In this document: positions 59,988-60,889 of the stretch, piece after piece
How positions within the stretch are numbered: the stretch's first letter is position 1
Layout of the letters: every line of letters begins with the position of its first letter
Assembly: GCF_044647545.1 (NCBI RefSeq)
Contig: NZ_CP172818.1
Length of the DNA stretch: 64,000 bases
DNA from: Escherichia coli
Lineage (GTDB): Bacteria; Pseudomonadota; Gammaproteobacteria; Enterobacterales; Enterobacteriaceae
Strand: one strand, 5' to 3'
The notes under the pieces: model-generated
Database searches by the model: none
What the model was told of the DNA's origin: nothing
Seen by the model: only the letters and a program-made list of their open reading frames with translations
Program-made: the position numbers and the translations under genes

Positions 59988-60554
59988 ATGAGGCTAATCG
60001 TGGGTAAGCATCACTGGAAAATAGAAAAACAGCCTGAGTGGTACGTGAAAGCTGTCAGAAAAACTATCGCGGCGTTGCCGAGTGGTTACGCTGAAGCGGC
60101 TGACTGGCTCGATGTAACAGAAAACGCTTTATTCAACCGCCTTCGTGCAGATGGCGATCAGATTTTCCCGCTGGGATGGGCAATGGTTTTACAGCGTGCT
60201 GGTGGCACTCACTTCATTGCTGATGCTGTGGCGCAGTCTGCAAATGGCGTCTTTGTGTCTCTTCCTGACGTCGAGGATGTGGACAACGCCGATATTAACC
60301 AGCGTCTGCTGGAAGTCATTGAACAGATCGGCAGTTATTCAAAACAGATTCGTTCAGCAATCGAAGACGGTGTAGTGGAACCGCATGAGAAGACAGCAAT
60401 TAACGACGAGCTGTATCTCTCAATTTCGAAGCTGCAGGAGCATGCAGCACTTGTCTACAAAATTTTTTGCATTTCAGAAAGTAACGCCCGCGAGTGTGCA
60501 GCTCCGGGCGTCGTGGCGTCGATTGCTTCTGGTTGTGGAGAAACTAACGCATGA
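59988..60554 (+). CDS. ymfL: e14 early-region protein
   Basis: ORF track 188 aa; first gene of croE-side early operon. Confidence 0.75.
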
Positions 60555-60889
60555 ACAGTTTAACAACACACTACCGTCGCTCGCAACTGATTGCACTTCC
60601 TGTACCGGGTGGAAAAGCGAAGGTGGAGTATTGCTATGCAGTGAATGTACCAGGTGACAGGGAAATTGTAACCCACAGCTTTGCAGAGTGGGCTGTGGGT
60701 GATTTCAACCGGCAGAAGGAGACAGTCCTTTGCGACAAGTTAACCGCTGGTTCAAAGATCACTACGGAGTGCCCGTCAGAGTCATTCGTTGGGAGCCGGA
60801 AACACAACGGGTTATCTACCTCCGTGAAGGCTATGAACATGAATGCTTCAGTCCGGTCGAACAGTTTCGTCGTAAATTCAGGGAAATAG
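60551..60889 (+). CDS. ymfM: e14 protein YmfM (reported SOS-inducible cell-division inhibitor)
   Basis: ORF track 112 aa; 4-nt overlap with ymfL; function from literature memory. Confidence 0.75.

Follow-up and report, generated by a model that had tools for sequence, protein, structure and literature searches.

In a 64,000-nucleotide stretch of Escherichia coli DNA (contig NZ_CP172818.1 of assembly GCF_044647545.1; the whole stretch is hereafter called the window), the genes ymfL and ymfM occupy positions 59988 to 60889, in the early operon of an e14-type prophage. Our reading, to which we give a probability of roughly 70%, is that the ymfM locus of this e14 early operon brings together three elements: an N-terminal module of YmfM (N-module), which would act as a blocker of the FtsZ ring (Z ring), an embedded DUF4222 gene, and an antisense small RNA (sRNA). 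That ymfM is a division inhibitor is already known; the overlap with DUF4222 is unreported, and it bears on the identity of the inhibitor. The published K-12 description treats ymfM as a simple gene of 112 amino acids (aa), with no mention of the embedded DUF4222 gene or of the antisense sRNA. The literature we searched contains no mention of an overlap between DUF4222 and ymfM, of a conserved stop-free frame, or of the conservation and OOP-like reading of the sRNA ECS003; the papers mentioning DUF4222, judged mostly by their titles and abstracts, do not concern ymfM.

As annotated in the K-12 reference NC_000913.3, ymfM lies at 60551..60889 on the plus strand and encodes the 112-aa “cell division inhibitor YmfM”, or SfiC. 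Its last 160 nucleotides (nt) coincide with another open reading frame (ORF), 60730..60909, in such a way that YmfM codons begin at codon position 2 of the second frame; residues ~63-112 of YmfM are the +1 frame of a DUF4222 (RgdR-family) gene. With its Shine-Dalgarno sequence, this gene spans 60716..60909 on the plus strand: AAGGAG at 60716-60721 stands 8 nt before a TTG start at 60730, and the stop codon at 60907-60909 overlaps the start of oweE, for a product of 59 aa. The ORF matches PF13973 (E = 1.4e-18, 66.6 bits vs. a cutoff of 27, profile positions 3-52 of 53) as well as phrog_1343 (5.6e-34). The start codon is ATG or GTG in relatives, and every locus has its own AAGGAG and start codon. 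The Prokaryotic Genome Annotation Pipeline (PGAP) of NCBI, when run on K-12 genomes, calls DUF4222 (WP_001250269.1, 59 aa) and leaves ymfM uncalled, while NC_000913.3 omits DUF4222. Judging from the way its sequence evolves, DUF4222 is a real gene under purifying selection, better conserved than the YmfM tail: the ratio of non-synonymous to synonymous substitution rates (dN/dS) is 0.03-0.36 in its frame, with dS of at least 1 (saturated), and its product is 86% identical in aa to the Klebsiella phage copies, as against about 45% for the overlapping tail of YmfM.

The AlphaFold2 (AF2) model of the DUF4222 product, with a predicted local distance difference test score (pLDDT) of 83, is a five-strand small beta-barrel of the SH3/KOW/Tudor kind. 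Its best fold matches are the KOW domains of Spt5/NusG and Tudor/SH3 barrels, with template modelling (TM) scores of 0.6-0.7 and non-significant E-values, and a PDB sequence search with the DUF4222 profile returned nothing. The only studied DUF4222 protein is RgdR (ECs1581), from prophage CP-933C of enterohaemorrhagic E. coli. The e14 copy is likewise a small, basic, prophage-borne protein with a DUF4222 domain; it differs from RgdR, a 99-aa protein of a P4-like element that activates the locus of enterocyte effacement and type III secretion (T3S) and represses motility, in its length of 59 aa, in its place just upstream of an O-like gene, and in being nested in another ORF.

Another way of joining the two frames was considered and rejected. 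A programmed -1 frameshift from the N-module into DUF4222 finds no slippery heptamer in the 27 nt between the stop of the DUF4222 frame (60700-60702) and TTG 60730, and DUF4222 has its own conserved Shine-Dalgarno sequence and start codon. The 118-119-aa “fusion” proteins found in databases (P0031, P0059, P0065) have varying junctions, as expected for sporadic frameshifts or errors.

The overlap is a candidate dual-coding region, with clear purifying selection in the DUF4222 frame and stop avoidance only in the YmfM tail frame. The window and K-12 differ there by 5 nt, of which four are silent in DUF4222; the same four change YmfM residues, so that the two alleles differ by four tail residues and one DUF4222 residue. 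The apparent dN/dS of the tail is 0.9-5.4, and its pLDDT of about 40 in the AF2 model goes with predicted disorder. We surveyed DUF4222 loci in genomes chosen to represent species (53 loci), to which others from phages and metagenomes were added, and grouped them into clusters with less than 80% DNA identity to one another. In all lineages of Enterobacteriaceae and Erwiniaceae, an ORF starts at or near the stop of the CII-like gene, takes the +1 frame across DUF4222 and finishes at the DUF4222 stop or shortly after it; the tail frame is free of stop codons in 15 of 15 clusters. The expected openness, computed as an exact probability over 52 codons given each DUF4222 protein and the codon usage of the flanking phage genes, is 0.012-0.19 per sequence. 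Avoidance is also visible codon by codon: at Leu, Val and Ile codons standing before an A, where an A or G in the third position would create a stop, this choice was made 0 times out of 47. The rate in flanking genes is 57%, and among no-risk positions of the same genes it is 18 of 57.

Could the long ymfM ORF be an annotation artefact, a short N-terminal peptide that runs by chance into an open alternative frame of DUF4222? The composition and evolution of the tail do look like those of an unselected alternative frame, ymfM is not called by PGAP, and the codon-aligned antisense frame over DUF4222 is likewise open as a trivial by-product. Against this, chance openness is low in each lineage and all 15 clusters are open; stop-creating codons are avoided specifically at the at-risk sites; the +2 frame over DUF4222 holds 1-8 stops; and DUF4222 genes with no ORF reading into them (in Serratia, Citrobacter phiNP, Yersinia YeP3 and Proteus) have 1-5 stops in their +1 frame. 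We thus regard an artefact as quite improbable. As for the antisense frame, the minus-strand 90-aa ORF at 60634-60906, whose equivalent is annotated as a coding sequence in phage vB_EcoS-733R5, is a by-product and probably no gene; it is open because DUF4222 lacks TTA, CTA and TCA codons, and several of the stand-alone controls have it open as well. Short YmfM-like database proteins (63-100 aa) were examined in case they were nonsense alleles occurring in nature; they proved to result from frameshifts, insertion junctions or the ends of contigs, and none from a nonsense codon in the tail.

A different explanation of the open frame is that the full 112-aa YmfM is the functional unit and that its disordered tail is needed for activity or control, for instance as a degron that lets the block be reversed or as a segment binding a partner. 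Such a role would fit the openness of all 15 clusters where 1-19% is expected of each, the position of the tail-frame stop, which is always at or beyond the end of DUF4222, and the phages SfV, ST64B and Stx, where the frame extends as one long ORF into a protein of Rha type, consistent with a translated linker. We find it doubtful, however, since the tail is not conserved in sequence beyond what DUF4222 demands (apparent dN/dS of at least 0.9, while synonymous sites of DUF4222 are saturated), its pLDDT is about 40, and natural N-module ORFs of 57, 76 and 78 aa do without it. With 15 open clusters out of 15 and a tail sequence that is free to vary, selection appears to act on the openness of the frame, that is, against stop codons only and not on amino acids.

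In SfV, ST64B, the Stx2a phages and PhiR47_1 (L149-L152 and L156; about 1349-2515 in locus coordinates), the ORF goes from the CII stop through the +1 frame of DUF4222 and for about 100 more codons, in frame, into a gene of Rha type with an AAGGAGG Shine-Dalgarno sequence and an ATG of its own. These read-through ORFs are open over 279-405 codons and are annotated as “transcriptional regulator”, “Rha” or Sb41; the 279-405-aa product may be either a genuine long isoform or one more case of a frame that stays open.

The N-module (residues 1 to ~62, 60551..60736, plus strand) is the conserved, folded part of YmfM. In the AF2 model, residues ~10-66 have a pLDDT of 76-88 and form three strands and a helix. 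Over the first 179 nt of ymfM in 82 close relatives, 15 of the 18 variable sites are third codon positions, and the changes in the N-module are synonymous in 17 cases vs. non-synonymous in 4; between divergent pairs, the pairwise dN/dS is 0.15-0.56. The first ~60 residues still align as protein among at least five divergent types, a stand-alone 57-aa ORF of Proteus being one of them. YmfM as a whole matches phrog_1170 over its full length (E = 1.2e-69, residues 1-112 of 112) and is 96-100% identical to hundreds of copies in prophages of E. coli and Shigella; its gene stands between a CII-like gene and an O-like replication gene, as part of a lambdoid early-right operon. Both ymfL and ymfM are ORFs beyond chance.

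Between the CII-like gene and DUF4222, the N-module comes in at least five types that differ greatly from one another, yet each of them starts with MNS(L/V) and belongs to one alignable family. This variety resembles that of a fast-evolving host-interaction module placed on a conserved scaffold. The N-module can also stand alone: in Proteus faecis (L143), it is a 57-aa ORF with its stop exactly at the start of DUF4222; in Entomohabitans (L094), where DUF4222 is deleted, a 78-aa ORF; and in Salmonella (L095), a 76-aa ORF with an unrelated tail. A 63-aa family, phrog_20047, consists of the N-module only.

The SfiC function of e14 reportedly goes back to D’Ari and Huisman in 1983 and Maguin et al. 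in 1986. In the work of Ansari et al. (bioRxiv 10.1101/2020.11.19.390815), the ymfM and ymfL ORFs were each cloned in pBAD24; induction of ymfM gave filaments of ~57 µm with 27-fold fewer Z rings and an unchanged level of FtsZ, and filamentation persisted in the wild type as well as in sulA, slmA and minCDE mutants. Upon recA441 induction, filamentation was weaker in a double mutant lacking sulA and ymfM than in a sulA mutant. The same preprint equates ymfM with SfiC, an inhibitor of Z-ring formation, and quotes that ftsZ (sfiB) alleles resisting SulA also resist SfiC. The original prediction, made from the sequence with no database search, had named a SulA-independent, SOS-inducible filamentation caused by ymfM, which agrees with these data. 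In earlier library screens, the fragments recovered span ymfL'-ymfM-ymfN'.

The published constructs leave the attribution of the block to the 112-aa YmfM unproven. It could come wholly or partly from the embedded DUF4222: the published construct and all the library clones contain its Shine-Dalgarno sequence, its start and at least 53 of its 59 codons, which is the whole Pfam domain; DUF4222 is the more conserved product and the only ORF called by PGAP; and RgdR, the sole characterised member of the family, is described as a regulator with pleiotropic effects and non-specific DNA binding, whose expression alters T3S and motility (RgdR paper). We hold this to be unlikely. pBAD24 provides the YmfM frame with a strong ribosome-binding site (RBS) and an ATG, while DUF4222 would need its internal TTG; filamentation is not mentioned in the RgdR paper (the term “filament” has 0 occurrences); and the variable, host-interaction-like evolution of the N-module suits a division inhibitor better than a conserved DUF4222 translationally coupled to a replication gene. 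The N-module is, by inference, the most likely division-inhibitory moiety, the published clones and deletion having hit both frames, and we lean, with some reserve, towards the N-module being sufficient for the division block.

One has to keep in mind several points that weigh against this reading. Of the 59 codons of DUF4222, 53 are present in the pBAD-ymfM insert, together with the native DUF4222 Shine-Dalgarno sequence, the ΔymfM deletion takes out most of DUF4222, and the ymfM preprint describes no frame-specific control separating YmfM from DUF4222; a term search of a later paper using the construct (PMC11410268) gave no match for such controls either. According to Ansari et al., ΔymfM alone had no phenotype, and they saw no need for ymfM under norfloxacin. 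Searches by sequence and structure (hmmscan, Foldseek) gave the N-module no relative whose function is known: hmmscan found no Pfam family for YmfM at E ≤ 0.1 or for its N-terminal half at E ≤ 1, and Foldseek found nothing in the PDB for the YmfM model at E ≤ 0.001. The naive product of the openness probabilities, 1e-18, overstates the case, as it treats clusters as independent though the lineages are related; three or four deep lineages alone give about 1e-5. Finally, SOS control through the repressor YmfK is drawn from its S24 domain and from old SfiC genetics.

The third element lies on the minus strand at 60476..60586, an antisense unit resembling OOP of phage lambda and corresponding to ECS003. 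Its -35 element (TTGCGA, 60586-60581) and -10 element (TAAACT, 60562-60557) would place the start near 60550, and a terminator hairpin at 60512-60483 is followed by ACUUUCU. The resulting transcript of ~75 nt would be complementary to the start codon of ymfM, to its Shine-Dalgarno sequence (GGAG, 60537-60540) and to the 3' end of ymfL. An RNA of ~70 nt, antisense to the RBS of ymfM, has been seen on a Northern blot and reported as ECS003, which ranked first in abundance among the cis-antisense candidates of a survey of K-12 small RNAs (PMC3175480). In 24 of 24 divergent loci, Proteus included, TTGC(GA) and TAAACT are found on the minus strand 18 nt apart, the DNA between them being variable; in the protein, the two elements correspond to Gln12, which is invariant, and to the “MNSL” N-terminus that all N-module types share. 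The ~65 nt preceding the ymfM ATG are kept as DNA, coding or not. Some 40 nt past the presumed start, the hairpin (60483-60512) has 10 pairs, of which 6 show compensatory changes; pairing holds in 98.7% of cells, the 13 G-U cells lie without exception on the minus strand, and the observed values were reached by 0 of 500 shuffles. For the antisense unit, the minimum free energy is -26.4 kcal/mol (z = -2.75). A search of Rfam 15 over 59600-61100 (E ≤ 1) returned no family, and a scan for consensus promoters and terminators over 59600-61000 returned no promoter and only weak terminator-like sites; the antisense promoter was missed because it scores 8/12, for a threshold of 9/12.

Like ECS003, lambda OOP is ~75-77 nt long, starts downstream of a cII-type gene from a sigma-70 promoter and has its intrinsic terminator inside the 3' end of that gene. 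No sequence similarity was detected between the two RNAs, and ECS003, unlike OOP, also extends over the start codon and RBS of ymfM, the gene that follows, with its promoter within the first 13 codons of ymfM. The widest version of our proposal is a three-layer overlap conserved among Enterobacteriaceae prophages, in which the ORF of a variable, host-directed N-module is kept open over an independently translated DUF4222, with an OOP-like antisense promoter in the same codons, and in which read-through would be selected for a purpose independent of the sequence; on this we are evenly divided. The molecular identity of SfiC (the YmfM N-module, full YmfM or DUF4222) would then still be open.

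The gene ymfL is found on the plus strand at 60000..60554 if read from the GTG start of RefSeq, or at 59988..60554 as the longest ORF, from an ATG. A GAGG Shine-Dalgarno sequence at 59990-59993 lies 6 nt upstream of GTG 60000, and ATG 59988 has none; a start at 59988 is probably 12 nt too early. The original prediction had left YmfL unassigned, which has to be corrected: the protein matches the phage 186 CII family, Phage_CP76 (PF06892, E = 8.6e-13, 48.8 bits vs. a cutoff of 26), the “CII-like transcriptional activator” phrog_101 (1.6e-68) and the “YmfL family putative regulatory protein” NF041471 of NCBIfam (2.9e-49, 166.5 bits vs. a cutoff of 90). A PDB sequence search with YmfL found no solved relative. 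YmfL also sits where CII sits in lambda, immediately downstream of cro and ahead of the replication gene, with an antisense RNA (OOP in lambda) over its 3' end, even though Phage_CP76 has no sequence relation to lambda CII. Profile matches and position make ymfL a putative activator of the CII family and not a host-killing function.

It had also been proposed that ymfL and ymfM together resemble kil-type host-takeover genes. The two genes do share the early operon and are co-transcribed, and older work left either gene as a candidate for SfiC. As a description of the pair, this is now scarcely credible, as three libraries and the cII slot place YmfL among CII activators and induction of ymfL from pBAD24 gave no filamentation (bioRxiv 10.1101/2020.11.19.390815); the kil-type part of the claim survives for the ymfM locus only.

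The closest known system is YmfM/SfiC of K-12 e14, the same gene at the same locus, with an N-module identical in aa, 108 of 112 residues identical over the whole ORF, and the same position, ATGA coupling and defective-prophage context. Lambda Kil, KilR of Rac, DicB of Qin and the host protein SulA are, like YmfM, short proteins made from an early or SOS-controlled transcript that stop Z-ring formation and cause filaments. YmfM is, however, not a member of the Kil, DicB, SulA or CbtA families, as it has no Pfam family and no Foldseek fold; DicB needs MinC, whereas YmfM acts without MinC and also without SulA. To our knowledge, none of the genes for Kil, KilR, DicB and SulA overlaps a second conserved gene.

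Around the two genes, the layout of the interval is that of a defective lambdoid prophage of e14 type, of whose rightward early operon it forms the proximal part. The ORF listing gives 59988..60554 (188 aa from the ATG) and 60551..60889 (112 aa), and inspection of the junction finds the 4 nt ATGA (60551-60554) shared by both, the overlap the original prediction had described. Their position just downstream of croE likewise holds, the end of croE (59956) being 31 nt from ATG 59988 and 43 nt from GTG 60000. The assignment to the early operon of a defective prophage is borne out by its start beside a LexA/CI-type repressor and by the deletion scar in ymfN. By megablast, the segment is 99.2% identical to K-12 e14 across 1.6 kb, and one of the 13 differences is an indel of 3 nt in ymfL; the window is therefore from a close relative and not from K-12 itself. 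When positions 59600-61200 of the window are compared with K-12, ymfL has one ATG codon fewer, near 60484. None of the complete E. coli genomes in the collection comes nearer than 99.2%, and an identical YmfM is encoded on IMG/VR contigs.

The annotation of NC_000913.3 has ymfK, ymfT, ymfL, ymfM and a chimeric ymfN at the corresponding places. On the minus strand, ymfK (cohE, 58991..59665), annotated as “LexA family protein” or “putative repressor”, encodes a repressor of the CI/LexA type that carries a self-cleaving peptidase domain of the S24 family (Pfam Peptidase_S24, E = 1.5e-26) and is the presumed SOS sensor of the element. The Cro-like helix-turn-helix (HTH) gene ymfT (croE, 59756..59956, plus strand, RefSeq coordinates mapped onto the window) opens the rightward operon; its matches to YdaS_toxin and HTH_3 are weak and under the Pfam cut-offs, and the proteins at homologous positions in relatives match P22_Cro. 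Between them, a repeat search of the divergent control region (59681..59759) found two operator-like palindromes having GTAC cores in common: the first, CTTGTACC-N5-GGTACAAG at 59681-59701, pairs perfectly (8/8) across a 5-nt gap, and the second, at 59723-59759, has 15-nt arms that are 87% complementary and overlaps the RBS and start of croE. From their position, both are likely candidate operators for the repressor and Cro. Downstream, the ymfN chimera (oweE'-'aaaE, 60899..62266, plus strand), annotated as chimeric or as pseudogenes, has HTH_36 at residues 23-70, the N-terminus of an O-like replication protein, then TerL_ATPase from profile position 118 and then TerL_nuclease; this fusion is the scar of a large internal deletion that makes the prophage defective. 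In the related loci with gene tables that we examined, a leftward S24 repressor gene is followed by rightward genes for Cro, a CII-like protein, a YmfM-like protein and an O-like replication protein.

Put together, these elements suggest the following course of events. DNA damage would activate RecA and lead the S24 repressor YmfK to cleave itself, and the cleavage would derepress a transcript running through croE, ymfL, ymfM/DUF4222 and oweE'. The N-module of YmfM would then block formation of the FtsZ ring, either directly or through an early divisome partner. DUF4222 would be initiated independently in the -1 frame, the YmfM ORF crossing it as a disordered tail of ~50 residues. The tail might have a role that does not depend on its sequence, for example as a flexible or unstable extension, or by keeping ribosomes on the message over DUF4222 up to the O start. 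In the lysogen, ECS003 could mask the ymfM RBS and hold translation of YmfM down.

These results matter first for the use made of ymfM, which is the “cell division inhibitor YmfM” of the K-12 reference and serves as a tool to make filaments, while the NCBI pipeline calls DUF4222 in its place; the divisome target of the inhibitor can be found only once it is clear which product acts. Many prophages of pathogens share this layout, among them SfII, SfIV, SfV, ST64B, the Stx phages and Klebsiella phages, and RgdR, the only studied relative of this DUF4222, regulates virulence genes. A frame that is open and otherwise unconstrained is a clean natural case for asking why overlapping frames persist. 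Should the three-layer overlap prove true, the tail could be a disordered instability segment that makes the division block transient, or the ribosome traffic along it could gate the translation of DUF4222 and O.

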